Source of the DNA: Clostridia bacterium
GTDB lineage: Bacteria; Bacillota; Clostridia; Oscillospirales; CAG-272
Assembly: GCA_017467165.1 (NCBI GenBank)
Contig: JAFTST010000051.1
Location: forward strand, 78,488-142,487
Length of the DNA: 64,000 nt
Direction of reading: 5' to 3'
The notes beneath the pieces are model-generated. The model was not told where the DNA came from. It did not search any database and saw only the letters and a list, made by a program, of their open reading frames with translations. Positions 1,724 to 64,000 of this stretch are shown here, one piece after another; position 1 is the stretch's first letter, and every line of letters begins with the position of its first letter. The translations under genes and the position numbers were made by a program.

Positions 1724-2671
1724 ATGAAGAGAAAAAAGGTTATTATCTCCGCCATAGCAGTCCTTATTCTGCTCGCGGTGGGTGTCGGCGTGCTTTTCGG
1801 TGTTCGGGAATACAACGACGGCAGAATGAAATTCACCGTGAGTGACACGCTCCCCGACGGGAACGGAAGACGGGCGAGGGTTATTCTGCTCGGCGGACAG
1901 TCAAACGCCTCAGGCTGCAGCCGCGACGATTATCTCAAGAAAAACGTCACTCCCGAAAAATACGCCGAGTACGAGGCGGGCTACGGTAACGTATATATCA
2001 ACTACTTCGCGACGGGCACCAACAGCTCCGACGGATTTGTCAGGTGCTCCGTTCGGCAGGGCGAGGGCGGTGGCTTTTTCGGCCCTGAGCTTGGGCTTGC
2101 GGAAAGGCTGAGCGAGCTGTATCCTGATGAGCTGTTTTTCATCATCAAGTGCGCCTGGGGCGGCTCTAATCTTCATTCGCAGTGGTTATCACCGTCAGCC
2201 ACGGGAAGGACAGGGCATATGTACAAGTCCTTCGTCGAATACGTCGAAACGAGTATGGAGTACCTGCTTCTGAAGGGCTACGATGCGAAAATTGAGGGTA
2301 TGTGCTGGATGCAGGGCGAGTCGGACTCGTTTTCTGTTGAAGCAGCCACCGAATACGAAGATAATCTTTCCAAGCTGATTGAGGATTTAAGAAAAAAATT
2401 CTCCCGCTACTCAGCGGAGGACGGGCTAGCCTTCGTCGACGCGTATATTGCCGCAACCCCTGCCTTCTGGGTACACTACGAGCTTGTCAATCAATCGAAG
2501 GATGAGGTTGCCAAATCGAGCGATATGAACGCCCTCGTTGATACCATTTCTGCGGGGCTTACCTGCGACCTTGAGCCTGAGGGAGCTCCCGATATTCCTC
2601 ACTATGATTCAATGAGCCAGATTAAGCTCGGAAGACTTTTCGCCGACGAGCTTGTCAGATTTTTGGACTGA
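1724..2671 (+). CDS. SASA/DUF303-type carbohydrate (sialate-like) O-acetylesterase, membrane-anchored
   Basis: LLGGQSNASG and WMQGESD motifs match the SGNH-like SASA family. N-terminal TM anchor VIISAIAVLILLAVGVGVLFGV. Hairpin terminator downstream. Confidence 0.7.
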   Translation: MKRKKVIISAIAVLILLAVGVGVLFGVREYNDGRMKFTVSDTLPDGNGRRARVILLGGQSNASGCSRDDYLKKNVTPEKYAEYEAGYGNVYINYFATGTNSSDGFVRCSVRQGEGGGFFGPELGLAERLSELYPDELFFIIKCAWGGSNLHSQWLSPSATGRTGHMYKSFVEYVETSMEYLLLKGYDAKIEGMCWMQGESDSFSVEAATEYEDNLSKLIEDLRKKFSRYSAEDGLAFVDAYIAATPAFWVHYELVNQSKDEVAKSSDMNALVDTISAGLTCDLEPEGAPDIPHYDSMSQIKLGRLFADELVRFLD

Positions 2672-8704: not shown

Positions 8705-8821
8705 TCGAGGCTTGGATTTCATCTGAGCTGAGCAAGATTTCATTGAAGCGACAGAAAAAAAGAAAGCCCGACGGAAAGTCGGGCTTTCAACTTTAAAAAT
8801 ATCAGGGGACAGTTATAGCGC

Positions 8822-12353: not shown

Positions 12354-14669
12354 TTATTTGCCCCACTTTTCCATAGGAACAATCTCGGAGTAGCCCTCGC
12401 CGTCAATCGCTACGGCACAGACGATTTTCGTAGCGTTCTTATGTACCACGAGAAGTCTGGTGTGGTCGTGTCTGTCGTACTCCTCGTCAAAGTTCGCGGT
12501 GGTGCTGAGAAGATAGGTATAGCAGTCAGAGAGCGCGAGCTCGCCGTCGCCGAGAAGGCGGACTGTGATACTCTTTCCGTCCTTGTGCGTGAGGGTGGCG
12601 GATTTCTTGTCCTCAGCGAGAGTGGCGGTGATTTCGGTGTTATTGAAGTGGAAAATGCCGTAGGCATCCTGAGGATATGCGAACTCTACCTCGTCCTGAA
12701 TAACAACCGTATTTCTGTCCTCGGTGATGAGCATTCCGCGCAGAGCAGACTTGACTGCGTCGCCGTAGACCTCCTTGTTGTCTATGATGGCATACGCGCC
12801 CTTTCCGCTGTGTACTCTCGTCATTCTGCCCGTTGCGCCGGGGAGCTGACCGTACTCGACAGAGGGCAGGCAGAGGGTGTTGTTACCCTCGGCGTTTCTG
12901 CGGTACAGGCAGTAGTTTTCAAAGTAGCGATGTACGTTGTAGTAATCGGGGCCCATATCGGTGAACCAGAGAACACCCTTGTTGTGATATACGAGAGAGC
13001 CCGAGTCGAGCTGGCTGTGGCTGGGCTCAACGGGGTTGTAGCCACCCATAATTCCCGCGTAGAGAGAGCCTGCCGCCCATCCGTTTCTGACAACGAAGGC
13101 GTCGATTCCCTCCATATAGTAGTCAAGGGGCATTTCATCGAGCTTGGGAATATTTCTTTCTCTTACCACGGGGCTGTATAGGAGCTCGAAGAGCGTGGGG
13201 TTCTTTCCTCTTTCGAGGTGAGAAATTCTGAGCGCGTAGAGCTTGTCGTCGCCGTTGACCGTGGCGAGCATATTGAACAGGGAGGAATCCTGCTGCTCAA
13301 GAAGACCGTCGTGATAATTCCAGCCCACGAAGTCGCAGGACTCGGAGCTGAGAGCGTAGTAGCAGGTTCTGTCAATTCCCGCGGAGAGCGAGATACCGAG
13401 GTCGGAGCCGATAGCGTCGTAGAGGACTGCTATGATTTTGAACAGCGACTCGGTGCCGTATGACCAGTAGTGGTTGGACTCGACGTAGGAGCCGTCGGGC
13501 ATATACAGCTTCAGGACGTAGGTCGGCTGAGTTATAGAGGTGAGGCAGGCGCCGAGAAGCTCGGTCATAATCTTTTTTTCCTCGTCGGTCGCGTGCTTCG
13601 AGGTGATGAGCGAAAGAATTGAAATTACAAGGCAGGAGTTGTTAACCGAGTTCCAGTTATCCTTCTTGTCCTTGTAGCGCCAGCCCGTAGCGTGATGATG
13701 CGTCGGGTAGGTGCAGGTGTCGAATATGAAGGACAGGAAGCCCTCGTAGATTCCGTTTCTGTACACTCCGCGATAGATGGCGCCGGCGTCGAGCCCCATA
13801 CCTTCCCAGGCGTCCTCCATCCAGTCGTACGCAGTGGCGAAGAAGCCGGCCGCGCCCGCGCAGTTGAGGAAGTGACCGGGACCCCAGTGCTTCATCTCGC
13901 ATACCGCCTTGGCGATAAAGTAAGCCTGTCTTGCATAATACTCGTTTCCTGTGATTATGTAAGCGAAGGACAGATGCATCGAGCAGGAGGCGATGGTTTC
14001 GGAGAAATAGTGTCTGCCGCCGATATCGTACAGGTCCTCGCCGTAGCCGTGGTGCAGGGGCTCGTTAAGGCCGTCGCCCTTCTCGTTGAGTCTGAACTCG
14101 GGCTTTTTCGAAATGTCAATGCATTGCTCGAGAACCTTCGTTATAGCTCTCTTGGTCAGACAGTCCTCGCCCTCGTATATAGCGCGGAGCTTGTCGAATA
14201 TATCCTTAGTGGTGAAGAGGTAGGGTCTTTTGGGAGCGCGGGCGTTAAGCATTCCGAGAACCTGCTCGCCTATGCGAACGAAGCCTGCTCTCTGCTCCTC
14301 GGTGCAGGGTGAGTAATCTCCCTTGAGCTTGATTCTCTCGAAATCGAATATAAAGGTATCCTGAACGTTGAGGAAATAATCCTTATCATCGTTGTGATTG
14401 AGCGAAAGAATACCCTCGTCGGAGTCGATAAGCACCAGTCCCGTGCTGTCTGCGTTGACGTATGCGCCGACAATCTCGCTCGTGTATTCCACGCCTTCGT
14501 GAGAAACCGTATTTCCGTGACCGAACAGTCCCGAAAGAGCGGATACCGGCAGATATACCTTGCCGTCCTTCTCAAAGGGAGCTCCCTCAAGAAGAACCTT
14601 CTTCTCATTAACCAGCGCCTTTCTCGTTCCGAGCCTGAGAGCTATCTTGGGTAAATTACGGGTTGACAT
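12354..14669 (-). CDS. Heparinase II/III-like protein, 771 aa, no signal peptide (paralogue of 4607..8704)
   Basis: AAGGAGG RBS. N-terminus has a stalk-like segment (KVYLPVSALSGLFG). Core motifs MKHWGPGHFLN, SHSQLDSGSLVYHNKGVLWFTDMG and YRRNAEGNNTLCL are collinear with the larger protein. Confidence 0.8.
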   Translation of the reverse strand: MSTRNLPKIALRLGTRKALVNEKKVLLEGAPFEKDGKVYLPVSALSGLFGHGNTVSHEGVEYTSEIVGAYVNADSTGLVLIDSDEGILSLNHNDDKDYFLNVQDTFIFDFERIKLKGDYSPCTEEQRAGFVRIGEQVLGMLNARAPKRPYLFTTKDIFDKLRAIYEGEDCLTKRAITKVLEQCIDISKKPEFRLNEKGDGLNEPLHHGYGEDLYDIGGRHYFSETIASCSMHLSFAYIITGNEYYARQAYFIAKAVCEMKHWGPGHFLNCAGAAGFFATAYDWMEDAWEGMGLDAGAIYRGVYRNGIYEGFLSFIFDTCTYPTHHHATGWRYKDKKDNWNSVNNSCLVISILSLITSKHATDEEKKIMTELLGACLTSITQPTYVLKLYMPDGSYVESNHYWSYGTESLFKIIAVLYDAIGSDLGISLSAGIDRTCYYALSSESCDFVGWNYHDGLLEQQDSSLFNMLATVNGDDKLYALRISHLERGKNPTLFELLYSPVVRERNIPKLDEMPLDYYMEGIDAFVVRNGWAAGSLYAGIMGGYNPVEPSHSQLDSGSLVYHNKGVLWFTDMGPDYYNVHRYFENYCLYRRNAEGNNTLCLPSVEYGQLPGATGRMTRVHSGKGAYAIIDNKEVYGDAVKSALRGMLITEDRNTVVIQDEVEFAYPQDAYGIFHFNNTEITATLAEDKKSATLTHKDGKSITVRLLGDGELALSDCYTYLLSTTANFDEEYDRHDHTRLLVVHKNATKIVCAVAIDGEGYSEIVPMEKWGK

Positions 14670-14880: not shown

Positions 14881-16521
14881 ATGAAGCTTAATTACAAACG
14901 CACGATACTCGTCGGCTTCGCCTTTTTCCTTATCAGCGCATTCTGGCAGGCGTACGACGCTATAGTGCCCCTTATGTTGACTAATCACTACGGTATGAAT
15001 CAGTTCTGGTCAGGACTGGTTATGGCGATGGATAACATTCTCGCCGTCTTTCTTCTTCCTCTTTTCGGCGCTATCTCGGACAAGGTGGCGTCGAGGTTTG
15101 GAAAGAGAACCCCGTTCATCTTTATTGGAACGATACTCGCTGTCGTTATGTTCGTCTCGCTCACCTTCGTCGGCAACGGTCAGCTCTCGAGAGTTGAGGA
15201 TACCGAGGTCGTTATGGATTACTCCTGCGCGGAAACCCTCAGGGGCAACGTGGACGAGCTCGCAGGAAAAATCGCGGACAAGGACGACGCGACCCTTGAT
15301 GAGATTTATAAGAACGAGAAGGCGGCTATTGACAGCCTCTATGCCTCGAAAACCATTCCCGAGCAGTACGAGGCGGCTGACTCCTTCAGAGATGCTACAT
15401 ACAAGCTGATTAAGCAGGCGAAAAAGACCTCTGACGAGGGACTTGCTGAATTTGCTTCGGCTCAGCTCAAGGTGGTTGACACCCTGTTTCAGGAAATAGA
15501 GGGCTCTACCTTCGAGATAACCGAGAGAAATATAGGCTCTCTTGTGGGCTTCACTATGGTGCTTCTTCTGGTGCTCGTTTCTATGGCTCTGTTTCGCTCT
15601 CCCGCCGTCGCGCTTATGCCCGACGTTACCATTAAGCCCCTGCGCTCCAAGGGTAACGCTATAATTAACCTTATGGGCACCGCGGGCGGAATAATCGTGC
15701 TCGTTCTGGGTATGATATTTGCAACGAAGAGAATTTATATGCAGTATACGGGCTACGTTATCGCGGTATGCGCGGTTATGCTGGTCGGACTCGTTATCTT
15801 CCTCGTTACAGTTAAGGAAAACAAGTGGGCGAAGGATATGCAGGACGATACCGAAAGATACGGTATCGATGAGAGCACAGCCGACGAAGGTGGAGAGAAG
15901 AGAAGACTCTCCCGCTCCGAGATGGTGTCGCTGTTTCTTATTCTCGCGTCGGTTGCCCTCTGGTATATCGGCTACAACTCGATAACGAGTAAGTTCTCGG
16001 TGTACGCTACCCGTGAGCTTGGCTTCGACCACAATATCACACTCATCGTCGCTCAGGCGGCGGCGGTAGTCGCGTATATTCCCGTCGGAATTATATCCTC
16101 GAAGGTTGGCCGCAAGAAGGCGATTCTCGCAGGTATTGTTATGCTCACCGCGGCATTCATCGGCGGACACTTTATCACCCCCATCGTTCCCGAAATAATT
16201 ATGTATCCCATATTTATGCTCGCGGGCATTGGCTGGGCTACCATCAACGTCAACTCCTTCCCGATGGTCGTAGAGCTCGCTCGCGGCGGCGACGTCGGAA
16301 AATATACAGGCTACTACTATACCGCTTCTATGGCGGCGCAGATTGTGGCTCCCACCCTCTCGGGTCTGCTCTACGGCATATTCGGTATGAGGAGCACCTT
16401 CTTCGTGTTTGGCTCTGTGTTCGTTGCTCTTTCGTTCGTCACTATGCTCTTCGTCAAGCACGGTGACTCGCGTCCCGAGCCCACAGGCGCTCTTGAAAGC
16501 ATTGGCGCGGCTGAGGACTGA
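14881..16521 (+). CDS. MFS (GPH/SLC45-like) permease with a large extracytoplasmic insert
   Basis: FGAISDKVASRFGKRTPFIFIG loop 2-3 motif and about 12 TM helices. A ~115-aa hydrophilic helical insert sits between TM3 and TM4. Confidence 0.75.
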   Translation: MKLNYKRTILVGFAFFLISAFWQAYDAIVPLMLTNHYGMNQFWSGLVMAMDNILAVFLLPLFGAISDKVASRFGKRTPFIFIGTILAVVMFVSLTFVGNGQLSRVEDTEVVMDYSCAETLRGNVDELAGKIADKDDATLDEIYKNEKAAIDSLYASKTIPEQYEAADSFRDATYKLIKQAKKTSDEGLAEFASAQLKVVDTLFQEIEGSTFEITERNIGSLVGFTMVLLLVLVSMALFRSPAVALMPDVTIKPLRSKGNAIINLMGTAGGIIVLVLGMIFATKRIYMQYTGYVIAVCAVMLVGLVIFLVTVKENKWAKDMQDDTERYGIDESTADEGGEKRRLSRSEMVSLFLILASVALWYIGYNSITSKFSVYATRELGFDHNITLIVAQAAAVVAYIPVGIISSKVGRKKAILAGIVMLTAAFIGGHFITPIVPEIIMYPIFMLAGIGWATINVNSFPMVVELARGGDVGKYTGYYYTASMAAQIVAPTLSGLLYGIFGMRSTFFVFGSVFVALSFVTMLFVKHGDSRPEPTGALESIGAAED

Positions 16522-16553
16522 TAAATCAAAAATAACTTTTTAATGGAGGCGCT

Positions 16554-26424: not shown

Positions 26425-27208
26425 TTTCGTCTACCTCCTTATTTTCAGTGGAACTCTCTTCTGCATCTGTTGCAAGCTCGGTGATTTCGGAGCAAGAGGT
26501 CTTGGTGCAAAGGTGTGCGGATGGGCAGCCGTCGCAGGAGAAGCTCTTGCGCTTGACGCCTCCCTTCTTGGCGGTAATCTTATTCATAACCGCGATAAGA
26601 ATACCGAACACGAGGAATCCGCCGGGAGCCTTCGCAAGAATCGGAATTCTGAAGTCATAAACCATAGTGCCGTCCTCGGCTATCTTAAACAGAAGGTTGA
26701 TGGGCTGTACATTGAAGGACTCAAGGCCCTTGAGAATGGTGCCCTCGCCGAGAATCTCGCGGAAGATTGCCATTGAGAGAAGTGCAACAAGGAAGCCGAT
26801 ACCCATTCCTAGACCGTCAAGAGCAGAGTCAAGGGGGTTGTTCTTTCTTGCGAACATTTCCGCACGTCCAAGGACGATACAGTTTACAACGATAAGTGGC
26901 AACCAGATGCCAAGCAGGTTGTAAATAGGCTCAACAAACGCATGCAGAAGCATCTCGACAAGCGTAACAAACGCCGCAATAACAACGATGTAGCAGGGGA
27001 TACGAACCGTGTCGGGAATAATCTTACGGAGAAGGGAGATAACGACGTTGGAGCCAAGAAGCACGACGGTGGCGGCAAGGCCCATAGAGATTGCCGATAC
27101 AATGCTGGTACTTACCGCAATCGCGGGACAGGTACCGAGCACGAGGATAAGAACGGGGTTTTCCGCGATAATACCGCGAAGAAAAATAGAAAGCTTGCTC
27201 TTATTCAT
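26417..27208 (-). CDS. rnfE: Rnf complex subunit E with a ~45-aa Cys-rich acidic C-terminal tail
   Basis: AENPVLILVLGTCPAIAVSTS motif. Extra tail KRKSFSCDGCPSAHLCTKTSCSEITELATDAEESSTENKEVDENA. Confidence 0.85.
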   Translation of the reverse strand: MNKSKLSIFLRGIIAENPVLILVLGTCPAIAVSTSIVSAISMGLAATVVLLGSNVVISLLRKIIPDTVRIPCYIVVIAAFVTLVEMLLHAFVEPIYNLLGIWLPLIVVNCIVLGRAEMFARKNNPLDSALDGLGMGIGFLVALLSMAIFREILGEGTILKGLESFNVQPINLLFKIAEDGTMVYDFRIPILAKAPGGFLVFGILIAVMNKITAKKGGVKRKSFSCDGCPSAHLCTKTSCSEITELATDAEESSTENKEVDENA

Positions 27209-27229
27209 TTTTGTTCTCCTTTCGCGGTG

Positions 27230-28534
27230 TTATATTTTTTCGGTCAGCTTCAGGAATGCATCAAATGCATCGAGAACTGCATTGTGGTAATAAACGGTGG
27301 TGAAGGTTGCGTTGGCAATGATACCGGGACCCTGAATGGAGCTCGGCAGATTGTCGGTCTCGTAGCCGTTATCCTCGTTGGGAATAATGTCGGAGATGTC
27401 AAGGTCAAGAATCTGCTCACGGGTTGCACCGCGGAAGCTCTCGTAGAAGGCTTCGGTTGCACAGTTTGCACCGTAGTTCTTGGACTCGCCGTGCTTTGTG
27501 GTAATGATGTCGATAATCTTGCCGTCAGCACCGATAGATACGGTGAACTGAATCTTGCCGCTGCCGTGGCTGTACTCTCCTTCATCAGCGTAGCTGCCGG
27601 TGGTCTCCATCTCGAATACGTATGTGCCACCCGCGGTAACGTATGCCTTTTTAACGGTAGCCTTTGCACCGTCGGGAAGTGCAATTTCGGTGGTAGCTGC
27701 GGTCTGGAAGATAGTGTATGCCGCCTCAACTGCCGCGATGTCCTCGGCGGTGGTTGCGACCTTTTCTGCCTTCTTGTCAAGCTTAGAAACGGTGTCGGTG
27801 ATGCTGCCGTCAGCCTTCACACCGATAAGCTTGTCGCCGATAACCATTACAATACCATCGGCGGTGGCGGATGTGGTGTAGATTGCATCGATGCCGGTGA
27901 TAATAGCGGTAGCAAACCACTTTGTAAACTTCTTTCCCTCGACATCAAGGACAATGTTAAGGTTGTCTGCAAATACCTCGTCATCGGTACGTGCGTCCTC
28001 ACCCTTAAGGGAGGAGAATGCGCGGAGTGCCGCGTCCACAATAAGTGCACAAGCCTCGGAGGATACGGTGGAGCCGGCGATGATAACAGGGGAAAGATTG
28101 TCCTTGTTCTGACCGTTGTACTTACCCTTGTTGCCCTCAATGGCGTTAAGCACACTTTGAATCTTGTTAGCGGTATCGGTGTTGGATACAACCTTTACGC
28201 CGGTGATTTCGCCGTCAGCATTTACACCGACAGCAATCTTGATATCGCCGCCGTAGCTTCCGGTTACGCCGATGAATACATAACCGCCTGCGGATGCGGA
28301 GTGTACCTCCTTAATCTCTGCGGGAATGCTGTATTCTACAAGCTCTTCTGCGGCGAGCTTGGTAAATTCGACGTCGTTGCCGCTGTTATATGCGGAGTAG
28401 AGAGCAGCCTTTGCCTTTCTTTCCTCCTGCTTTGCAATCGCGGGCGCGGTGATGATGTTCACACAGCCGAGAAGGAGAGCGACGATGATACAAATTGAGG
28501 TGAGGACGATAGTGGGCTTAAACTTAGCAAACAT
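27230..28534 (-). CDS. rnfG: Rnf complex subunit G, expanded (434 aa) with two FMN-binding-like modules
   Basis: N-terminal TM anchor. Module 1 is GSYGGDIKIAVGVNADGEITGVKV...IIAGSTVSS. Module 2 is GSGKIQFTVSIGADGKIIDIIT...IIANATFTT. TAATG overlap with rnfD. Confidence 0.85.
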   Translation of the reverse strand: MFAKFKPTIVLTSICIIVALLLGCVNIITAPAIAKQEERKAKAALYSAYNSGNDVEFTKLAAEELVEYSIPAEIKEVHSASAGGYVFIGVTGSYGGDIKIAVGVNADGEITGVKVVSNTDTANKIQSVLNAIEGNKGKYNGQNKDNLSPVIIAGSTVSSEACALIVDAALRAFSSLKGEDARTDDEVFADNLNIVLDVEGKKFTKWFATAIITGIDAIYTTSATADGIVMVIGDKLIGVKADGSITDTVSKLDKKAEKVATTAEDIAAVEAAYTIFQTAATTEIALPDGAKATVKKAYVTAGGTYVFEMETTGSYADEGEYSHGSGKIQFTVSIGADGKIIDIITTKHGESKNYGANCATEAFYESFRGATREQILDLDISDIIPNEDNGYETDNLPSSIQGPGIIANATFTTVYYHNAVLDAFDAFLKLTEKI

Positions 28535-53680: not shown

Positions 53681-53928
53681 AGCTTTCAGCCTTTCGGTTT
53701 TTTGAATCAAGAGTATCTGCGAAGCCATTTTAACACAGGCTTAACAAAAAGTCAACTTAAAGTTTATTTTGAGTTAATATTGCTCGCCCTCACAATTCGC
53801 TTGCAATCTTCCGGGATAAGTGATAAAATGGAGAAAAGACTCGTGAGGCGGCAGGGAAAAGCTCTGTACGCGCGGGTTGTTGCAGGTGCGCTCCGAGGCG
53901 CTTTTGATTAATGAAAGGACGGGTCTGG

Positions 53929-55200
53929 ATGAAAAAGAAAATACTAAGCCTTCTTCTGTGTCTTGTTATGCTTTTGAGCCTTCTTAGCTCCTGTGGCGAG
54001 GGTAACCAAGCTACCGATGGCGAAGGACAAAACCAGGGTACTGCGGGCTCTGAGTTTTTTGGCAAGGAGCTAAGCAGAGAAAAGCTGGAATACGCCCTGG
54101 CTGAGGCTCTGAAAAAGATAGACTACGCCCTTCCGCAATTTACCGACAGGTTCCCGTCGCATAACAGCATTGACAACGTCTACTATGCCGTCGATAACGA
54201 CAGCGGCTGGACTACGGGCTTCTGGACGGGTATTTTGTGGCACGCCTACGAGCTTTCGGGCGACAGAAAATATCTTGATGCCGCTACCTCGCAGATTGAG
54301 TCCTACTACACCAGAATAGAAAACAAGGTTGGCGTCAACCATCACGATATGGGCTTTCTTTATACTCCGTCCTGTGTCGCGGCTTATAAGCTCACGGGTA
54401 ACGGGATGGCGAAGGAGGCGGCGGTTATGGCGGCTGACCATCTGATAACAAGATACCACGAGAGCGCTAAATTTATACAGGCCTGGGGCGAGGTCGGCGC
54501 GGAGGACAACTACCGCCTGATAGTCGATTGCCTTATGAATATTCCGCTTCTCTATTGGGCGACGGAGGTGACAGGTGATAGCAGATATAGGGAAGTCGCC
54601 TACAACCACTTCAGGACGACTCTCAGCGTCTGCTACCGTGAGGACGGAAGCACCTATCATACCTATTATTTTGACAAGACTACGGGCGCTCCGCTCAGAG
54701 GAGTTACAGCTCAGGGCGCGAGTGATGAATCCACCTGGTCGCGCGGTCAGGCTTGGGGTATGTACGGACCTCTGCTTACCTATATTTATACACAGGACAG
54801 CGCGGCTATTGATACCTTCAAGGCGACAGTCGACTACTATCTTCGGTATCTGCCAGAGGACTACGTTCCGTATTGGGATTTGTCCTTCACCTCGGGAGAC
54901 GAGCCAAGGGATTCCTCGAGCGCGGCGATAGCCCTCTGTGCGATTCTCGAGGGCATCAGGCATCTTGACGCCCTTGACCCCGACCGAGAGGTGTATATAT
55001 CCGCCGCGAAGAATATTATGAGCTCGCTTATCGACAACTATATAACTAGCGGTGTCCCGGAGGCTAACGGGCTTCTTCTGCACGCCACGTACAGCAAGCC
55101 CGACGGACTCGGAGTCGATGAAATGAATATATGGGGAGATTACTTCTATATTGAGGCTCTGCACAGAATGCTCGACCCCGAATGGGAGCCTTATTGGTAA
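53929..55200 (+). CDS. GH88-family unsaturated glucuronyl hydrolase, lipoprotein
   Basis: Lipobox LLSSCGEG. Motifs SGWTTGFWTGILW, DCLMNIPLLYWA and STWSRGQAWG. Confidence 0.8.
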   Translation: MKKKILSLLLCLVMLLSLLSSCGEGNQATDGEGQNQGTAGSEFFGKELSREKLEYALAEALKKIDYALPQFTDRFPSHNSIDNVYYAVDNDSGWTTGFWTGILWHAYELSGDRKYLDAATSQIESYYTRIENKVGVNHHDMGFLYTPSCVAAYKLTGNGMAKEAAVMAADHLITRYHESAKFIQAWGEVGAEDNYRLIVDCLMNIPLLYWATEVTGDSRYREVAYNHFRTTLSVCYREDGSTYHTYYFDKTTGAPLRGVTAQGASDESTWSRGQAWGMYGPLLTYIYTQDSAAIDTFKATVDYYLRYLPEDYVPYWDLSFTSGDEPRDSSSAAIALCAILEGIRHLDALDPDREVYISAAKNIMSSLIDNYITSGVPEANGLLLHATYSKPDGLGVDEMNIWGDYFYIEALHRMLDPEWEPYW

Positions 55201-57056: not shown

Positions 57057-57770
57057 TCAGGTGCGTCCTTCGTCTGCTTGACGCTCAGGTCTGTATACGC
57101 GCAGCTCCCGTGGCAGCTCGCCACATCTTTTGATAATAACAGCCCCCGTCACAGAGCCGAGGGTGGCTCCCAGCGTGTCTATAATCAGGTCGGTCATAGT
57201 GTCCGAAAGCGCCGCCCTGCCCGAAAGGGCGACGAGCCTCTGTCCTGCCTCCTCGGAATAGGCGAATTTCTGCATGTTCAGTCCAAGAATTCCGTCAAAG
57301 GCGAATTCATATATCTCCCACAGCACACCGATAAGCAGAGTGAAGCTGAGCGCGAAAAGCCCGAGAGCCAAGGGCGAGAGGCGGCAGTCGCGGGTGAGAA
57401 GAGAGGGAATGGAGAGGGCGAAAAGAGAGAGCAGGATGGCGCTCGCTCCGTGCAGTATGTCGTCGAAGGGCGGGAAGCGGTAATACATCAGTGCGACCTC
57501 GCCGAGAAATATAGAGCAGAAGATAAAAAGGGTATAGGATACGACAAGCGCGCTCGGGATATATAAGCCCGCCTGCTTTTCAAGAAAAATGGGGACTCGA
57601 AGGAAAAACAAACCCATAACGAGCTGAAAAATTATCAGCCTCACCCCGTCACCCTCGCCCTCGGAGATGGCAGAAACTATAACCGAAATCAACGCGAAAA
57701 CGAAAGCGGACGAGGTGGCGGAGTATAGTATTCTCACTCTCCCCTTTTCCTTTATTTTTCTGCCTTCCAT
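57057..57770 (-). CDS. Polytopic membrane protein (YjdF/DUF2238-like motifs)
   Basis: FDDILHGASAILL and VLWEIYEFAFD motifs, 6-7 TM helices. Start ATG 57770 has an AAGGAG RBS; the track start at 57806 is a GTG. Confidence 0.45.
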   Translation of the reverse strand: MEGRKIKEKGRVRILYSATSSAFVFALISVIVSAISEGEGDGVRLIIFQLVMGLFFLRVPIFLEKQAGLYIPSALVVSYTLFIFCSIFLGEVALMYYRFPPFDDILHGASAILLSLFALSIPSLLTRDCRLSPLALGLFALSFTLLIGVLWEIYEFAFDGILGLNMQKFAYSEEAGQRLVALSGRAALSDTMTDLIIDTLGATLGSVTGAVIIKRCGELPRELRVYRPERQADEGRT

Positions 57771-57845
57771 CACAAGCTCCTTGTCGTTCCCCGAAGAAAA
57801 AAACACGGGGAATATGCACCCCGTGTTAAAAAATGGCTATAAACG

Positions 57846-58571
57846 TCAGCTTTCCTCGGAGGAACCCCCCTTCATACCCGACAAGCGAAGAATGACCTCG
57901 CCGGCAAGGATAAGTCCGACAACGGATGGCACGAAGGAAATACTGCCCGGAACTCTCTCTCCCTCCCTTTTTCTCGGCTCCTCGTCCGAAAAGACGACGG
58001 GAAGGTGGTTTATACCTCTTTTCCGAAGCTCTATCCTGACCGCCTTCGCCAAGGGGTCGGTGTGGGTGCGGCTGATGTCAGACACTCTGAAGCGAGTAGG
58101 GTCAAGCTTGTTGCCTGCGCCCATTGAGGATATGATAGGCACTCCGAGCCTTTTCGCCTCGGAGATGAGAAAAACCTTCGCTCCGACGCTGTCGATGGCG
58201 TCAATTATGAAGTCACAGGCCGAAAGGTCTACGCTGTCCTTGGTTTTCTCGGAATAAAAAACGTTTATACACTCGACAGTACAGTCGGGGTTGATTTCTT
58301 TTATTCTTTCCCGCGCAGCCTCGGTTTTATACAAGCCAACCGTTTTTTGTGTGGCTATTATCTGTCGGTTTATATTCGTCAGGTTGACTCTGTCGGCATC
58401 AACGAGAAGAAGACCGCCGACTCCCGCCCTGGCAAGAGCCTCCACGGCATAGCCGCCAACTCCACCGACTCCTATGACGGCAACCCTGCTGTTTCTCAGC
58501 CTGTCAACGCCCTCGTCGGTGAGCATCATCGCTGTTCTCGTATAAATGTTTTCGCTATCGGTATATCTCAT
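57846..58571 (-). CDS. tcdA: tRNA threonylcarbamoyladenosine dehydratase (ThiF/E1-like)
   Basis: RVAVIGVGGVGGYAVEALARAGVG nucleotide-binding motif. Start ATG 58571 has an AAAGGAGAA RBS; the track start at 58745 is too long. Confidence 0.75.
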   Translation of the reverse strand: MRYTDSENIYTRTAMMLTDEGVDRLRNSRVAVIGVGGVGGYAVEALARAGVGGLLLVDADRVNLTNINRQIIATQKTVGLYKTEAARERIKEINPDCTVECINVFYSEKTKDSVDLSACDFIIDAIDSVGAKVFLISEAKRLGVPIISSMGAGNKLDPTRFRVSDISRTHTDPLAKAVRIELRKRGINHLPVVFSDEEPRKREGERVPGSISFVPSVVGLILAGEVILRLSGMKGGSSEES

Positions 58572-58808
58572 GTTTTCTCCTTTAGGTGGGGATATGTGTG
58601 TGATTTTGTCGACTTGTTGTGCGGTATATGTAAATAATAGATTACATAGCTTCTGTGACAAACCTCCCCTGAGGCGCCTTGTGCGCCTGTATCCTCGCTC
58701 TTTTTCACTCGTATTATAACATTTCTTCGGGCTTGTTGTCAACAAAGTGTTGATTTATTGCTCACAAGGTTGTATAATAGAGTATATCAACGAGTCTAAG
58801 GAGAAAAT

Positions 58809-60356
58809 ATGCTTTCCAAAATATACAGCTCCGGTGTCTTTGGCATAGATGGCTTTCAGGTTACCGTAGAGTGCAGCGCTTGGGACAGAATACCGAAATT
58901 TGAGCTCGTCGGACTTCCCGATACGGCTGTCAAGGAGGCGAAGGGCAGAGTGCAGTCCGCCTGTGAGAACAGCGGCTTCGTTTTCCCCGCGCTTGATATT
59001 CTCATTAACCTTGCTCCAGCTGACGTCAAGAAGGAGGGCACGGTCTTTGACCTTGCTATTCTCCTGTCAATTCTTCAGTGCGACGGTATCGTTCCGAGAG
59101 AGCTCGACTTCTTCGACAAGTGCATCATAGGAGAGCTGTCGCTCTCGGGTGAGGTCAGAGCCGTCAGCGGAGTTCTTCCAATGGTTATTTCAGCCCGCGA
59201 CCTCGGTATGCGCGAGGTTTTCGTGCCTCAGGACAACGCTAACGAGGCTTCTATGGTTTCGGGAATAACCGTGTACGGCGTGTCAACTCTGCGCCAGCTC
59301 GTCTGTCATTTTCGCGGCGAGGAGCTTATGACGCCCACCGAGCCGAGCTACGACAAGGTCGACCTATCGTATCACGAGGATATGGCAGATTTTTCCGACG
59401 TGTGCGGTCAGCTCAGAGCGAAGCGCGCGATGGAAATTGCCGCCGCAGGCGGACATAACATTCTTATGATAGGCCCGCCTGGCACGGGAAAGTCAATGCT
59501 TGCGAAAAGACTGCCGTCGATACTCCCTGATATGAGCTTTGAGGAGGCGCTTGAAACCACGAAGATACACTCGGTTGCGGGAAATCTTCGCGCAGGGCTC
59601 GTCACGGAAAGGCCCTTCCGTTCTCCCCATCACAATGTCAGTATGCCGGGTCTTATCGGTGGCGGAGCGCATCCGCGCCCCGGTGAAATCTCGCTCGCCC
59701 ATAACGGTGTTCTGTTCTTAGATGAGCTGCCAGAGTTCTCCAAGACTGTTACCGAGGGCTTAAGACAGCCGCTTGAGGACGGCGTTGTCACCGTGACCCG
59801 AGCAGCAGCGAAAATAACCTATCCCTCAAAATTTATGCTCGTCTGCGCGATGAACCCCTGTCGGTGCGGCTACTTCGGCGACCCTGTCAAGCAGTGCACC
59901 TGCACTCCTGCCGCGGCGGCGAAATATCTGGATAAGCTTTCGGGGCCTCTGCTTGACAGAATTGATATTGAAATCGAGCTGCCCTCGGTGTCATACAGCG
60001 AGCTCTCGGGAAAGGGAAAGCGCGGAGAGCCCTCGCGAGAGATAAGAAAGAGAGTCAACGCCGCTCGAGCCTTCGCTAACAAGAGGCTCTCTTGTGCGGG
60101 TGACAAGCCCGGTGTGCTTAACGCCAATATGCCCGTCGAGATGATGAGGCGTCACTGCGTACTGACAGAGGCGGCGGAAAAGCTTATGAAGAACGCCTTC
60201 GAGAGCCTTGGACTTTCTGCCAGAGGTCACGACCGCGTTCTGCGGGTTGCCCGTACAATTGCAGACCTTGACGAGAGTGCGGTTATTGACGAGGACCATA
60301 TCGCCGAGGCTATTATGTATCGCTCGCTCGACAGAAAGTATTGGAAGCGCGGATAA
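58809..60356 (+). CDS. comM: YifB/ComM-family Mg-chelatase-like AAA+ ATPase
   Basis: Lon-like N-terminal domain, Walker A LMIGPPGTGKSMLAKRL and Walker B GVLFLDELPEF. Confidence 0.85.
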   Translation: MLSKIYSSGVFGIDGFQVTVECSAWDRIPKFELVGLPDTAVKEAKGRVQSACENSGFVFPALDILINLAPADVKKEGTVFDLAILLSILQCDGIVPRELDFFDKCIIGELSLSGEVRAVSGVLPMVISARDLGMREVFVPQDNANEASMVSGITVYGVSTLRQLVCHFRGEELMTPTEPSYDKVDLSYHEDMADFSDVCGQLRAKRAMEIAAAGGHNILMIGPPGTGKSMLAKRLPSILPDMSFEEALETTKIHSVAGNLRAGLVTERPFRSPHHNVSMPGLIGGGAHPRPGEISLAHNGVLFLDELPEFSKTVTEGLRQPLEDGVVTVTRAAAKITYPSKFMLVCAMNPCRCGYFGDPVKQCTCTPAAAAKYLDKLSGPLLDRIDIEIELPSVSYSELSGKGKRGEPSREIRKRVNAARAFANKRLSCAGDKPGVLNANMPVEMMRRHCVLTEAAEKLMKNAFESLGLSARGHDRVLRVARTIADLDESAVIDEDHIAEAIMYRSLDRKYWKRG

Positions 60357-60512: not shown

Positions 60513-60550
60513 GGGCGAGGGGGCTTTATTCCCCCTCGCCCTATATTTAT
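60513..60550 (+). terminator. Hairpin terminator after comM
   Basis: GGGCGAGGGGG-ctttatt-CCCCCTCGCCC, a perfect 11-bp stem followed by a T-rich tract. Confidence 0.6.
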
Positions 60551-60600: not shown

Positions 60601-60629
60601 TTGAATAGGGCGCCCGCGAGTGATATAAT
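60601..60629 (+). promoter_or_regulatory. Sigma-A promoter of the giant ORF
   Basis: TTGAAT (60601-06), 17 nt, TGaTATAAT (TATAAT at 60624-29). RBS AAGGAGAG at 60651-58. Confidence 0.7.
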
Positions 60630-60662
60630 TGTGTCAGAAAAGTCTCGTATAAGGAGAGAAAT

Positions 60663-63600
60663 ATGAAAAATCTAAAGAAAATTCTGGTCGTTCTGTGTGT
60701 CATAGCGGCTCTGTCTGTGGGAGCAGTTCTGGCTTCCTTCGCCGCCGATGTGAGCTATACAGGCACGATGGATAAGCTGACGCCTCTGATTGACGACGTG
60801 CCTGTTCAGGCTGTCAATGGCACTGATATGACCTATAACGCACTCAAGAGAGTCATCAATTACCTGACAAAGACTCCTGTGAATCCCAATTCCGCGGGAT
60901 ACAAGGAGAAGATGGCGACTCTTGACCCATATATAGCTGATACTATTAACGCTTATTCGGATTTGGCTGTCGCTGCGTCCGATACCCAGGAAAAGAAGAG
61001 CCACCTCAACAAGATTGTTAATCTTGTCGAAGGCTTTGGCGTTAAGGACGAGGCTCTTGTTTCAAGCTATCACGCCGCGGCTATCTCTACCGCCGATGCT
61101 TTTCTCAACGTCGGACTCGCTCCCGAGACAACCGCCTTCGCGGACGTTAAGGGCGCATATGACACGGCTATGGATATCATCAGGACGGCTTCTGTCAATG
61201 ACGAGGGGCTTAACGCGAAGATAACCCAGCTTGCCGAGAAGATGCTCGTCACTTACCTGAACGCTATTGATACAGCCTCCGGTATGCTTGCCAAGGACAA
61301 GGCGATTGACGAGGCTCTCGCATTCCTCGCTGACGCGGGCATCGATGATGAGACCAACGTTGCTAAAATAACCTCCAAGATACCCAAGGCTCTTCTGGAC
61401 TCTTGCGGCGCTATATCCTCAATTGACAGCAGCGTCGGCAAGAACAGCGAGCTCTCCGATATAAGCAGCTTTATCACTAAGCACAACCTTACGGACGAGG
61501 CGTCCGTTTCCGCCTTTGAGAGCGCGGCATTCGTCGTTGCCGAGGGCTTTCTCGGTGATATCGAGGATACCAAGGTTGAGAGCACTGCCCAGAATGCAAT
61601 AAAGGTTAACCTCCTTCAGAGCTTCGTTGACAAGGGCTATCTTAACCCCGAAACCAATGAGGAGTATGCGGCGCTTCTTCAGGATTTTGAGGCCAGAAAG
61701 GCGCTTCAGGCGGCTGCTAAGGAAGCCAACAAACAGGCGATGCTTGCTCAGTCGACGCTTCCCGACTACGATATGTCTACCCTTATCGATACCGATTTCT
61801 CCAGCGGAAGAAACCCCTTCGCCTCCTCCCCCGGCTCCGTTCAGAACAAGGGAACCAACTTCGCAGGCCTCAGCAACGGTACCTTCACCATCACCTACGG
61901 CGGCTCCCAGACGAACGGTAATACCTACGCCGAGTACAGATTCCCGGATAACACCGGACTTAAGGGTCTTGTAGTTGACTTTGATTTCTGTACCTTCTCC
62001 GCGCTTCCTTACGGAGGCTTCTCGCTTGAGGGAGGCGGTATTTCTCCCATAGGAAAGATTCCCGACGGCTACAACGTTATGAGCGGCGGTAATATAGTGG
62101 TTTATCCCACTTACTTCTGGATTGACGTTGACGGTACCGTATATGCTAACGACGGCAATAACACGGCACTGTTGGAGAATTCTCTCGTTCCCGGTCAGTG
62201 GATGCACTACACCTGTATATTCAATAACGACGATTTCACCTTCTCCCTGTATTGCGAATACGAGCTTCTAGGAACCTATCCCGCCAATTTCTTCCGCGAC
62301 GGCTCTTATACCGAAATGACCTACGACCTTATCCGCGCGAGATTCAACGGAAGCACCACGGGTAGCGGCGAATTCTCGCTCGATAACCTTCAGGTTTATC
62401 AGGGAACCACCCTTCGTGATATCGGCTTGCTCGAAAGACTTGCGGGCGAGGAGAGGTTTACATATTTTGCAAATTACTATCTCGATGAGAACCGCGACGT
62501 AATGGGCAGAAAACTCGCGTATAACGAGGTTAGCAGACTTCTTCCTGAATATTGGGAGTGGACCAACGCCGAAAAGACCGAGGGTAATTATCTTACTGAA
62601 AACGCAGAAATACGCGCCCTCATTGATGACATCAACGCCTTTGACTACGACGGCTTCAGCAGGAAGCTCAGAGCGCACAACCTCAGCGAGTTTTCTGCGA
62701 GAGTAGATGACTTTTCGGAAATGCTACGCAACCTTGACGTCGTTAACATATCCGACCGCATCAAGGTAGCCAACAGTATAGACGAGTTTATCACCAAGAC
62801 GGGTAACGATATTGATAGAAACGACCAATACGACGCCACCAACAAGCTCTTCCTCAGGCTGAGGACCGAGGCGTACACCGACAGCAACAGCCTTGAGTTT
62901 ATCAAATGGGTGAAGAGATGTCATAATATGACAACCCTCTCCGCTAAGCAGAAATACTACGACAAGGCTACCGAGTGCCTTTATATGGAGGGCTGTCCTA
63001 TTGACGTATCCGACGAGCTTCTTAACAGAGAGGGCTTTGAGGAGCTGAAGGCGGCGTATGCGCTCTATCTGAATTCACTCGCAGAAATCGAGACAACACA
63101 GAGAAACGAGAACTCCAAGAAGATAATTGCTTGTGTTGACCTTATTTCCAAGTATCAAAGAGATGAATGGGACGCTAACTACGAATATATCAGCAGATTC
63201 GTTTCCATCATTCGTACCATTGTCAATGAAAACAACTACAATGCCGCTTACGAGGGACTTGTTGATGCTATCGAGATATACAGCGAGTATAACGAATACT
63301 TCTACTCTGTTCTTCAGCAGAGACATATCGATGAGCTGACAGCGCGTCTTGAGTACGTCGCCAACAACGACGCGTATATCGAGAAGAGCGGAACGCTGGC
63401 TTATATCGGAAGATATCTTGAAGCTAATAAGGACAATATAGACCCCGATAACGAGATTATCAACGACCTTGTCCGCAAGTATGAAACTGCTCTTGCAGAG
63501 GTCAAGTTCAGGGAAGAAGACTATGATAAGGTCCTCGTGCAGAACGCGCACTACTTCGTCGCGCTCGTAGAGAAAATGCGCATCACCGAGACCTACAGCG

Positions 63601-64000
63601 AGAAGAAGGCTCTGTATGATCAGGCAACTCCTTTCTACTTCGCTCTTGACGGCAGCGTTGAGGGTGCTATGGACGCGGTTGACGTCTTCGATCAGCACAC
63701 TGAGCTTCTCCAGAATATCGAGCGCTCGTCAGAGCGCTTCATCGAGGCGGTTGTGCTTCTTACCGCGGCGGAAACCAAGGAGGAGCTGTTCGCCCGTCTT
63801 GTCGACTGCTATGCATACAGCCTTGAAGCTGAGTCCAGCTTTGACGGTGTCGCCGAGGCTATGGAGATATACAACGAGAAGTACGAGGCTTACTGCAACG
63901 AGGTTACCGTAGCGAATGAGATTATCACTGAGACTGTGGTTGTGACGGGCTCGGTACGCTCGAATTGCGGTGTTACACCTATCATCGCGGTTATTATCAA
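60663..64000 (+). CDS. 5' part (>1112 codons) of a giant secreted protein: helical N-region, LamG-like beta-sandwich, tandem helical repeats; continues past the window
   Basis: Hand translation line by line from ATG 60663 meets no in-frame stop through nt 64000. Signal peptide MKNLKKILVVLCVIAALSVGAVLASFA-AD. Codon usage resembles neighbouring genes. Only short antisense or off-frame ORFs are listed here in the track. Confidence 0.85.
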   Translation, partial: MKNLKKILVVLCVIAALSVGAVLASFAADVSYTGTMDKLTPLIDDVPVQAVNGTDMTYNALKRVINYLTKTPVNPNSAGYKEKMATLDPYIADTINAYSDLAVAASDTQEKKSHLNKIVNLVEGFGVKDEALVSSYHAAAISTADAFLNVGLAPETTAFADVKGAYDTAMDIIRTASVNDEGLNAKITQLAEKMLVTYLNAIDTASGMLAKDKAIDEALAFLADAGIDDETNVAKITSKIPKALLDSCGAISSIDSSVGKNSELSDISSFITKHNLTDEASVSAFESAAFVVAEGFLGDIEDTKVESTAQNAIKVNLLQSFVDKGYLNPETNEEYAALLQDFEARKALQAAAKEANKQAMLAQSTLPDYDMSTLIDTDFSSGRNPFASSPGSVQNKGTNFAGLSNGTFTITYGGSQTNGNTYAEYRFPDNTGLKGLVVDFDFCTFSALPYGGFSLEGGGISPIGKIPDGYNVMSGGNIVVYPTYFWIDVDGTVYANDGNNTALLENSLVPGQWMHYTCIFNNDDFTFSLYCEYELLGTYPANFFRDGSYTEMTYDLIRARFNGSTTGSGEFSLDNLQVYQGTTLRDIGLLERLAGEERFTYFANYYLDENRDVMGRKLAYNEVSRLLPEYWEWTNAEKTEGNYLTENAEIRALIDDINAFDYDGFSRKLRAHNLSEFSARVDDFSEMLRNLDVVNISDRIKVANSIDEFITKTGNDIDRNDQYDATNKLFLRLRTEAYTDSNSLEFIKWVKRCHNMTTLSAKQKYYDKATECLYMEGCPIDVSDELLNREGFEELKAAYALYLNSLAEIETTQRNENSKKIIACVDLISKYQRDEWDANYEYISRFVSIIRTIVNENNYNAAYEGLVDAIEIYSEYNEYFYSVLQQRHIDELTARLEYVANNDAYIEKSGTLAYIGRYLEANKDNIDPDNEIINDLVRKYETALAEVKFREEDYDKVLVQNAHYFVALVEKMRITETYSEKKALYDQATPFYFALDGSVEGAMDAVDVFDQHTELLQNIERSSERFIEAVVLLTAAETKEELFARLVDCYAYSLEAESSFDGVAEAMEIYNEKYEAYCNEVTVANEIITETVVVTGSVRSNCGVTPIIAVII

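Follow-up and report, generated by a model that had tools for sequence, protein, structure and literature searches.

An unnamed secreted-type protein of uncultured Clostridia with a LamG-like jelly roll and a helical rod, a candidate partner of a PL35-like lyase

The capture and breakdown of acidic polysaccharides, of host or dietary origin, at the surface of Gram-positive gut anaerobes are far less understood than the Sus-like paradigm of the Bacteroidota. Near the end of a 64,000-nucleotide (nt) stretch of DNA from a Clostridia bacterium (contig JAFTST010000051.1, positions 78,488 to 142,487; here the window), a long reading frame opens and is still open at the last base, while a gene for a secreted lyase-like protein lies near the other end. 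This raises the question as to what the truncated gene encodes, and whether its product has anything to do with the lyase.

Results

Translation from the ATG at position 60663 on the + strand to position 64000 gives 1,112 codons without a stop. Two orthologues, P0001 (1,117 amino acids [aa], 92% identity) and P0002 (1,118 aa, 86% identity), both terminate in ...IIAVIIKKIFE, by which the window misses the five residues KKIFE and the stop codon. The sequence-only reading that first described this DNA was therefore right that a real open frame starts at 60663 and is cut by the window end, but its word "giant" was an overstatement, as the whole protein has 1,117 aa and ends 5 residues beyond the window. 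Between this gene and its orthologue at locus L001, differences at codon positions 1, 2 and 3 number 56, 38 and 166, and the codon changes comprise 138 synonymous and 91 nonsynonymous ones. By this substitution pattern, the + frame from 60663 is the one under purifying selection, and because selection acts on it, the antisense open reading frames (ORFs) at 61419..62207 and 63075..63698 are shadow ORFs.

The signals around the gene can be read directly. A sigma-70/SigA-type promoter at 60601..60629 (+), putative by consensus match only, consists of a -35 element TTGAAT (60601-60606), a 17-nt spacer and a TG-extended (60621-22) -10 element TATAAT (60624-60629). A promoter scan found the same site at the orthologous locus in L001, scoring 10/12 with the TG extension. 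The ribosome-binding site AAGGAG (60651..60656, +) lies 6 nt before the ATG, so that both the near-consensus promoter and the strong ribosome-binding site noticed earlier hold up. Upstream, a terminator-like hairpin, GGGCGAGGGGG-CTTTATT-CCCCCTCGCCC followed by a T-rich run (60513..60541, +), ends a ComM/Mg-chelatase-like gene identified by Pfam (58809..60356). L001 carries an equivalent hairpin at 9852-9880, as well as a bidirectional terminator downstream of the orthologue's stop. Because the upstream hairpin isolates it, the gene forms its own transcription unit; it is monocistronic, with its own promoter, ribosome-binding site and terminators.

The protein begins with a Sec-type signal peptide (aa 1 to 28; 60663..60746, +), made up of MKNLKK, a 20-residue hydrophobic core and ASFA|AD, where cleavage is predicted. 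Its Kyte-Doolittle mean over 19 aa peaks at 2.8, and across the family the median uncharged run at this place is 22 residues. A conserved YTGT motif follows directly, giving the family-wide pattern MKNxKKIL...AxA...YTGT, which together with the hydrophobic core bears out the earlier call of a secreted-type protein.

Next comes the N-terminal region, which had been described as helical and Ala/Leu/Asp-rich, in agreement with both its composition and its AlphaFold model. With hmmsearch it splits into two copies of one profile segment, unit 1 at aa 30 to 190 (60750..61232, +) and unit 2 at aa 197 to 362 (61251..61748, +), which HHalign matches to each other at 94.5% (E 8e-8). Unit 1 is modeled as helical with pLDDT 85 to 92 at aa 30 to 125 and lower values past 125. 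This tandem duplication of a unit of about 150 aa had been overlooked. The present protein has two copies and the largest relatives about 10 (as in the 2,605-aa P0081); the family's size range arises because the copy number of this unit varies.

The central domain, at aa 370 to 585 (61770..62417, +), is a LamG/concanavalin A (ConA)-like jelly roll by AlphaFold, Foldseek, HHalign and Pfam matches of relatives. Modeled strands at aa 373 to 579 (approximately nt 61779 to 62399) coincide with the beta-rich segment noted at 61800-62420. AlphaFold gives the domain 13 strands, with pLDDT 85 to 96 over aa 400 to 585, in a two-sheet jelly roll superposable on lectin and LamG structures. Foldseek matches include legume lectins, calreticulin, ERGIC-53, sialidase lectin domains and vAL-1 (E 1e-5 to 1e-3, TMt 0.4 to 0.55, with probability 1.00 to legume lectins, calreticulin and vAL-1). 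Pfam Laminin_G_3 (PF13385) is found at E<=0.01 in 21 of 48 family members (best, 8.5e-8); together, these matches confirm the LamG-like character read from the letters. The protein itself reaches 12.7 bits (E 0.14) against PF13385, under the gathering score of 27.6 bits, and the best large relatives reach 25.7 bits. Conserved W513, D574 and N575 occupy core or structural positions typical of the fold. Thus, the domain shares with the Laminin_G_3/ConA superfamily (legume lectins, calreticulin, ERGIC-53) both the jelly roll and the typical C-terminal xDNxxxY strand, yet it accounts for only about 20% of the protein, and the helical domains on either side of it are without parallel in the superfamily. 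We infer glycan binding through this putative lectin-type domain; LamG folds also mediate protein-protein contacts.

Beyond the jelly roll lies an all-helical rod of about 510 aa (aa 586 to 1094; 62418..63944, +), defined by AlphaFold and profile comparison, and conserved more strongly than any other part of the family. After one beta hairpin (aa 631 to 643), long helices of 33 to 44 aa alternate with short ones of 15 to 17 aa in units of about 70 aa, with a mean pLDDT of 87 when the rod is folded alone. The sequence-only reading had proposed tandem repeats of "three-helix-like units." Repetition with a period of about 70 aa is detected by profile-profile comparison in register (95% for U1-U4, 83% for U4-U5, 72% for H0-U2 and 10 to 48% for others, against <=0.3% for LamG controls); self-BLAST of the protein shows no repeats, and no Pfam repeat family matches it or 48 relatives. 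The three-helix description is not borne out, as helices in the model instead alternate between about 35 and about 15 aa in length, and the motifs listed in that reading fall on the short helix that comes second in successive long-helix/short-helix units.

Against the PDB, Foldseek finds nothing for the rod at E<=1e-3 (best, Sec10, E 0.019, TM 0.18), nor any match to toroid lyases; plakin and spectrin repeats give E 0.4 to 0.7 and TM <=0.16. Spectrin/plakin, exocyst CATCHR and cullin repeats, the least-bad of these nonsignificant matches, are likewise elongated antiparallel helix stacks with a period of roughly 70 aa. However, canonical spectrin repeats have three helices, whereas the units here are long-helix/short-helix pairs.

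The protein ends in a conserved tail that, judging by P0001 and P0002, spans TGSVRSNCGVTPIIAVII at aa 1095 to 1112 of 1,117 (63945..64000, +) and then KKIFE outside the window. Its consensus, [SA][VL]R-x-N-x5-[IV][LIV]A[VI][IV]KK[IL]F, keeps a fixed register to the C terminus in 118 of 150 relatives, and the tail profile matches family members only among 2,187 ORFs in 306 kb of related genomes. AlphaFold models the tail with low confidence. With a Kyte-Doolittle mean of 1.35 (in the orthologue) and a median uncharged run of 9 residues across the family, the tail cannot span a membrane. LPXTG is absent from the C terminus (...GSVRSNCGVTPIIAVIIKKIFE); Pfam and NCBIfam searches of the protein and 48 relatives return no SLH, CWB2, LysM or other wall-binding domain; and no PEP-CTERM, GlyGly-CTERM, Firmicu-CTERM or other NCBIfam sorting model matches. 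As the protein has none of the known wall or membrane anchors, its retention at the cell surface is a guess.

An exhaustive HMMER search yielded 302 representative relatives (clusters at 50% identity) of 780 to 2,600 aa, all from uncultured Clostridia and none bearing a name. The window ORF matches the family HMM end to end at 1,058 bits and carries all the family hallmarks: the MKNxKKIL-type signal peptide, the LamG domain, the conserved rod and the C-terminal [SA][VL]RxN...KK[IL]F tail. The conserved core runs from about aa 300 to the C terminus and always includes the rod. Tandem paralogues occur, two in L004 and three in L015. Apart from the LamG/ConA-like domain, the family has no Pfam, NCBIfam or PDB match, and Pfam and NCBIfam searches of 48 members reveal no catalytic or other additional domain, in line with the earlier failure to recognize a catalytic or known anchoring motif. 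The family is unnamed, with neither a Pfam/NCBIfam model nor a solved relative.

The likely partner is encoded at 4607..8704 (+), a secreted protein of 1,365 aa whose modules, by Pfam, are a LamG-like domain, a Cu_amine_oxidN1-like segment, a PL35/heparinase II/III-like core and a C-terminal helical tail. It matches the PDB sequences 8khw, 8khv and 9o3q at E 1e-28 to 1e-34. These are PL35 glycosaminoglycan lyases, or GAGases (PDB 8KHV, 8KHW and 9O3Q; PMC11262172, PMC12088678), the closest characterized relatives of the 4607 protein and the best clue to its substrate class. Their catalytic Asn/Tyr/His (residue identities from PMC12088678) align and are intact in the 4607 protein, which thus retains the triad. 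The characterized enzymes are single-module proteins of about 600 aa from Bacteroidota among others, apparently reported with no LamG module, helical tail or such partner gene. Unlike them, the 60663 protein has no lyase domain: Hepar_II_III and DUF4962 match neither it nor 48 relatives, and the HMM of the partner family does not match it.

Three observations bear on a connection between the two proteins. The LamG domain and the N-terminal module of the 4607 protein are homologous (HHalign 98.5%, E 1.8e-15, 163 columns), as the sequence-only reading had seen in their mirrored motifs. The same reading likened the last unit to the extreme C terminus of the 4607 protein; here, HHalign gives 21% (E 1e-3) against <=0.8% for 40 column shuffles, a suggestive resemblance, but full-family profiles give no match. 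The functional tie that it proposed gains support from other genomes. In 5 of 11 lineages (L005, L007, L008, L010 and L016), a full-length 4607 homologue (32 to 34% identity in these five independent lineages) lies 15 to 24 nt downstream of the family gene on the same strand, and in a sixth the lyase is 6.5 kb away.

In this window, the two genes are 52 kb apart, and the target gene forms no operon with the lyase-like genes, from which 46 to 52 kb separate it. Nor is a lyase gene adjacent elsewhere in its own subgroup (window, L001, L004, L012, L013 and L014), and 4 of the 11 lineages show no lyase inside the available flanks; family and lyase may not be obligate partners. A GH88 gene identified by Pfam (53911..55200) lies 5 kb upstream of the target. 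Because of this gene and the PL35-like partner, the suggested substrate is an acidic, uronic acid-containing polysaccharide, e.g., a glycosaminoglycan. The orthologous loci otherwise lie among chromosomal housekeeping genes (ThiF, ComM, PfkB, spoIIIA) conserved across lineages.

Discussion

We favor, with about even confidence and from sequence and models, the explanation that the 60663 protein is a secreted, non-enzymatic, glycan-binding surface partner of the PL35-like lyase that acts outside the cell, perhaps in physical association with the enzyme. Export would proceed by the Sec route via the N-terminal signal peptide, and the tandem units of about 150 aa would form a spacer of variable length. 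The jelly roll and the lyase's homologous LamG domain would share their binding target, whether a glycan or a docking surface. The rod and conserved tail would offer a surface for assembly or retention, either keeping the system at the cell envelope or tying the two proteins to each other. Cellulosomal scaffoldins of Clostridia and SusD/E/F-type proteins of Bacteroidota are similarly large, secreted and non-catalytic; as with them, the target has a carbohydrate-binding-type module and its family gene adjoins that for a polysaccharide-cleaving enzyme. The analogy is functional only, since the target's host is Gram-positive and the protein has no recognizable enzyme-docking module, with no cohesin, dockerin, CBM3, SLH, lipobox or TPR-like SusD fold (Pfam matches to cohesin, dockerin, CBM and SLH are absent from it and 48 relatives).

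The strong promoter, the monocistronic layout and the tandem paralogues could just as well belong to an abundant structural protein of the cell surface. Such an envelope protein, S-layer-like or adhesin-like, would carry its lectin-type head for host or dietary glycans on a variable helical stalk, with the lyase as loosely related cargo. The near-consensus extended -10 promoter, strong ribosome-binding site, strong terminators, paralogue arrays (L004, L015), repeat number of 2 to about 10 and faint resemblance of the rod to spectrin/plakin and SbsC-type rods, its only structural echoes, all fit. We nevertheless consider this unlikely: it offers no SLH, CWB2, LPXTG or other wall-anchoring module, the S-layer/spectrin matches in Foldseek are not significant (E>=0.4), and the 15- to 24-nt coupling to the lyase in five lineages, with a shared LamG domain, is hard to explain if the proteins are unrelated. 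The coupling could also mean that the shared LamG and terminal helix bind the enzyme rather than the glycan, making the protein a regulator, inhibitor or chaperone that, for example, keeps the lyase inactive, or protects the polysaccharide of the cell's own surface, until the enzyme encounters its substrate. Its place upstream of the lyase gene, its homologous LamG domain, the suggestive terminal-helix motif and its lack of a catalytic domain are compatible with that role, which we hold to be decidedly improbable: 1,100 to 2,600 aa with variable repeats is unusually large for an inhibitor or chaperone, several lineages have no adjacent lyase, and tandem paralogues occur.

Foldseek also matches NTNH/BoNT chains (helical domain plus lectin-like Hcn; E 7e-6 to 1e-4 over about 500 columns) and ConA-like domains of phage tail proteins, which would suggest a toxin-like or phage-derived receptor-binding protein. 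Because TM is 0.10 to 0.15 and rmsd exceeds 20 A, this match is real for the jelly roll only; protease, translocation and beta-trefoil domains are absent, PHROGs gives no match, and the conserved ThiF, ComM, PfkB and spoIIIA neighborhood is chromosomal housekeeping, so that we disfavor this origin as very remote. No more credible is a sporulation or spore-surface role, to which spoIIIA downstream of the family gene in L001 and L015 and a GerA gene (2937..4370) adjoining the 4607 gene might point: the gene has a vegetative, SigA-type promoter rather than a SigE/K/G-like one, two oppositely oriented genes and terminators separate the target gene from spoIIIA, and spo genes are not adjacent where the lyase lies directly downstream.

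Returning to the lyase-partner explanation, a bolder form of it, which we judge quite unlikely, is that, in Gram-positive gut Clostridia, the family and the PL35-like lyase make up a previously undescribed extracellular apparatus of two proteins for degrading glycans, joined through modules that both have, a terminal Y-x-x-Y...N helix and the LamG domain. The rod would then be a new fold serving as a length-adjustable scaffold, and the SVRxN...IIAVIIKKIF tail, with its invariant register, a new envelope-retention or docking signal.

Taken together, this analysis defines a sizeable family, with members of up to 2,600 aa, that is linked at the gene level to a PL35-like lyase, with which it has a lectin-type module in common. 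Should there be no complex, the annotation value remains, as a large "hypothetical" gene now has a defined architecture, known ends and a partner that can be tested. Should the coupling stem from a physical complex, the family would be a new accessory component for the breakdown of glycosaminoglycans or uronate polysaccharides in uncultured Clostridia, its helical rod would be a new domain, and its tail would be a candidate retention signal.

Gene structure and coding frame

The frame that opens at ATG 60663 on the forward strand runs to the window's end with 1112 sense codons to nt 63998 and no stop on translation, as the sequence-only reading had stated, and the expression signals it described are present in the sequence: a −35 element TTGAAT (60601-60606), a 17-nt spacer, a TG-extended −10 element TATAAT (60624-60629), and the RBS AAGGAG (60651-60656), 6 nt 5' of the ATG. 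The upstream ComM/Mg-chelatase-like gene has its terminator at ~60513-60541, where a GC-rich hairpin is coupled to a T-run, and an equivalent promoter and terminator were called at the orthologous locus, L001. Two close orthologues, P0001 (1117 aa, 92% identity) and P0002 (1118 aa, 86% identity), both end in ...GVTPIIAVIIKKIFE, so the window loses just five residues and the stop codon; to call the ORF "giant" was an overstatement. Because a bidirectional terminator lies 3' of the orthologue's stop in L001, the gene is monocistronic.

Comparison of the window with L001 revealed 56, 38, and 166 differences at codon positions 1, 2, and 3, respectively, with 138 synonymous and 91 non-synonymous codon changes. 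This positional bias and the excess of synonymous changes argue that the forward frame is the one under selection and that the antisense ORFs of the ORF track here, 61419..62207 and 63075..63698, are shadow ORFs. The window's other long antisense ORFs include a 758-aa ORF at 6467..8743 (−), described as wholly within the lyase gene 4607..8704, as well as 15010..16461 and 27230..28534 (against 26942..28498); these are probably shadow ORFs as well, inflating naive gene counts.

A previously unannotated protein family

The sole Pfam match of the protein is to Laminin_G_3, below threshold (E = 0.14), and NCBIfam, PHROGs, and PDB sequences yielded nothing meaningful; a PDB sequence match to a phage sheath protein (E = 0.004) was dismissed as compositional. 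When the full protein or a 55-sequence alignment served as the query, word-indexed homology searches returned the two close orthologues and no further relatives, because the index saturates on a long, compositionally biased query. As defined here (E ≤ 1e-3, HMMER against cluster representatives), the family is seen by the exhaustive HMMER run alone, which identified 302 relatives among 1.84 billion cluster representatives, 180 of them at E ≤ 1e-30. Of two scans of genome contigs, the first found no member and the second found the family in two Eubacteriales MAGs only.

Members are about 780 to 2605 aa long and share a conserved core, corresponding to target residues ~300-1117, that reaches the extreme C terminus in every match. 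Almost all begin with MKNxKKIL and continue through ~20 hydrophobic residues to an AxA-type site; a Y-T-G-T-type motif comes next in 84 of 138 full-length members. At the other end, a fixed-register tail, [SA][VL]R-x-N-x5-[IV][LIV]A[VI][IV]KK[IL]F, is found in 118 of 150 relatives. Ten family clusters that were looked up, each of 1-7 members drawn from NCBI MAGs, ENA, and Logan assemblies, are without a name in any source. Across 48 diverse members, Laminin_G_3 was detected in 21 (best E = 8.5e-8), with no other recurrent Pfam domain and no NCBIfam match, and our literature search found papers on PL35 lyases and nothing on this family.

Domain architecture

An AlphaFold2 model built with the 55-sequence alignment has a mean pLDDT of 81, rising to about 85-95 over residues 370-1090. 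The protein is exported, with a predicted signal peptide at aa 1-28 (translation, family N-terminal pattern, and hydrophobicity). Two tandem helical units of ~150 aa follow at aa 30-362 (HHalign 94.5%, E = 8e-8), a region that hmmsearch likewise splits in two. About ten copies of this unit are present in the 2605-aa relative P0081, and Pfam identified no N-terminal enzyme domains in nine giant relatives; additional copies thus account for both the size range of the family and the lack of extra Pfam domains in its largest members.

The center of the protein (aa 370-585) is modeled as a beta jelly roll of LamG/ConA-like fold. Foldseek matched it to legume lectins, calreticulin, ERGIC-53, sialidase lectin modules, the BoNT/NTNH Hcn domain, and the vAL-1 lyase (E = 1e-5 to 1e-3, TMt 0.40-0.55). 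The fold was thus found structurally, the domain's own Pfam score being below threshold, and the Laminin_G_3 matches elsewhere in the family support this predicted assignment. The whole chain had no Foldseek match (TMq ≤ 0.15).

Residues 586-1094 form an all-helical rod with one beta hairpin (models and Foldseek), in which the model alternates helices of 33-44 residues with helices of 15-17 residues; modeled alone, the rod has a pLDDT of 87. Foldseek found no PDB match for it at E ≤ 1e-3, the best being exocyst Sec10 (E = 0.019, TM 0.18); importin, cullin, and spectrin/plakin rods ranked next. The tandem repeats proposed earlier for this region are real by profile-profile comparison of ~70-aa units (in-register matches of 95% for U1-U4, 83% for U4-U5, 72% for H0-U2, and 10-48% for others, against ≤0.3% for LamG controls), but they are weak, and self-BLASTP showed none. 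That they form three-helix units was not borne out; each motif offered as an example corresponds to the short helix of one unit in the series.

The conserved tail (aa 1095-1117), defined from orthologue C termini, is modeled with low confidence. Its best 19-residue Kyte-Doolittle mean is 1.35 in P0001 (family median, 1.33) and its uncharged run has a family median of 9 residues, compared with 2.8-2.9 and 22 residues for the N-terminal segment. This hydrophobic length rules out a transmembrane C-terminal anchor, and the tail is more likely a short hydrophobic or amphipathic helix. A homology search with a 52-aa tail profile yielded a single 61-aa fragment. Rod and tail are without a detectable known counterpart.

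Relationship to a PL35-like lyase

The 4607..8704 gene (+) encodes a 1365-aa protein comprising a signal peptide, a LamG-like module, a Cu_amine_oxidN1-like segment, a heparinase II/III-like core, and a helical tail. The best PDB sequence matches to its core are PL35 lyases (8khw, E = 1.8e-34; 8khv, 1.5e-29; 9o3q, 1.1e-28). The catalytic Asn/Tyr/His of PL35 (N187/Y241/H397 in GAGase VII; PMC12088678) are conserved at the aligned positions, and Gln replaces one Mn2+-ligand His (H-x-Q-x-D versus H-x-H-x-D). A paralogous PL35/heparinase II/III-like protein, 12354..14669 (−), is 33% identical over the core and by eye has the same pattern, H-S-Q-L-D. A gene for a sialate O-acetylesterase-like (SASA) protein is found at 1724..2671.

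The LamG modules of the target and lyase families are homologous (HHalign 98.5%, E = 1.8e-15, 163 columns), and the EWMHV.../...IDNVQCYNY correspondence first seen by eye holds; profiles were needed, as BLASTP of the two proteins gave just E = 0.03 over 26 aa. A likeness between their C termini was recovered in the exact register proposed (HHalign 21%, E = 1e-3; 40 column-shuffled controls, ≤0.8%), but this is only suggestive: full-family profiles showed nothing, and the tail profile gave recurrent sub-significant matches at the extreme C terminus of three lyases (E = 1.5-8.6).

Although the two genes are 52 kb apart in the window, they are linked elsewhere. A homologue of the lyase gene lies 15-24 nt downstream, on the same strand, of the family genes P0081 (L005/6), P0036 (L007), P0054 (L008/9), P0112 (L010/11), and P0060 (L016), and these homologues are full length, 32-34% identical from residue 1 to the end. 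For P0008 (L015), the homologue lies upstream at a distance of 6.5 kb, next to three family paralogues in tandem. None was seen within the available flanks of L004, L012, L013, and L014, and the L017 contig stops just 3' of the family gene. In most loci, the family gene is preceded by syntenic ThiF/ComM genes, which indicates that the locus is ancestral and that the lyase gene moved or was lost in the target's subgroup. These ThiF-like and ComM/Mg-chelatase-like genes (57057..60356 in the window; also L001, L004, L005, L010, L014, and L017) keep their place immediately upstream even of very divergent family members (23-40% identity), marking a chromosomal position that is old and stable; they have no evident functional connection to the family gene.

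Two loci carry tandem arrays, a pattern that recalls variable surface-protein loci. The three genes at L015 10001-18459 encode 877-895 aa with about one N-terminal unit each; of the two at L004 10001-15419, the second (797 aa) lacks N-terminal repeats. The latter had been considered a homologue of the 12354 lyase but belongs to the target family as a tandem paralogue. Between the lyase and the paralogues of L015, a 1184-aa protein without a Pfam match (4662-8216, −) could be a further component of the system. Downstream of the L004 pair, 15889-17349 (+) encodes a 486-aa predicted lipoprotein that contains a long low-complexity linker rich in Gly, Ser, Asn, and Thr and whose conserved C-terminal domain is without Pfam annotation on record.

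Proposed function

We favor, with moderate confidence, the view that the target is secreted and serves the PL35-like lyase as a partner without catalytic activity of its own. GH88 enzymes act on the unsaturated products of uronate lyases, and a GH88 unsaturated glucuronyl hydrolase gene (53911..55200, +) lies 5 kb upstream of the target and has a counterpart in L001; together with the second PL35-like gene, 12354..14669, it fits a uronic-acid polysaccharide context. The nearest functional analogues are scaffoldins and SusD/E/F-like proteins, which capture glycans or act as scaffolds without catalysis. Since the defining modules of both were each tested and are absent, the target would work like these proteins rather than belong with them.

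The main rival, an S-layer-like or adhesin-like surface protein, would accommodate the strong promoter, tandem paralogues, and repeat-number variation, yet the target has no known wall anchor and the tight coupling to the lyase gene would go unexplained; we regard it as unlikely. A regulator or chaperone of the lyase is less likely still. A toxin-like or phage protein is highly improbable given the context and low TM-scores, and PHROGs gave no match. Context also speaks against a spore protein, which we consider equally improbable. Sporulation and germination genes do occur at both loci (GerA, 2937..4370 (+), adjoins the 4607 gene, and the spoIIIA operon lies just downstream of the target's orthologue at L001 15068-19550), so the organism is a spore-forming member of the Clostridia; their adjacency looks coincidental.

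The analysis shows export, the domain architecture, the LamG homology, and the linkage of the genes. For the partner role, we infer glycan binding and complex formation, and with them localization and substrate: the LamG domain would probably bind the glycan or dock to the enzyme, with the N-terminal repeats as a variable-length spacer and the rod and tail as an assembly or retention surface. Nothing here points to an unprecedented mechanism. Rather, the family is solid and had so far escaped annotation, and it has a concrete partner that can be put to the test.
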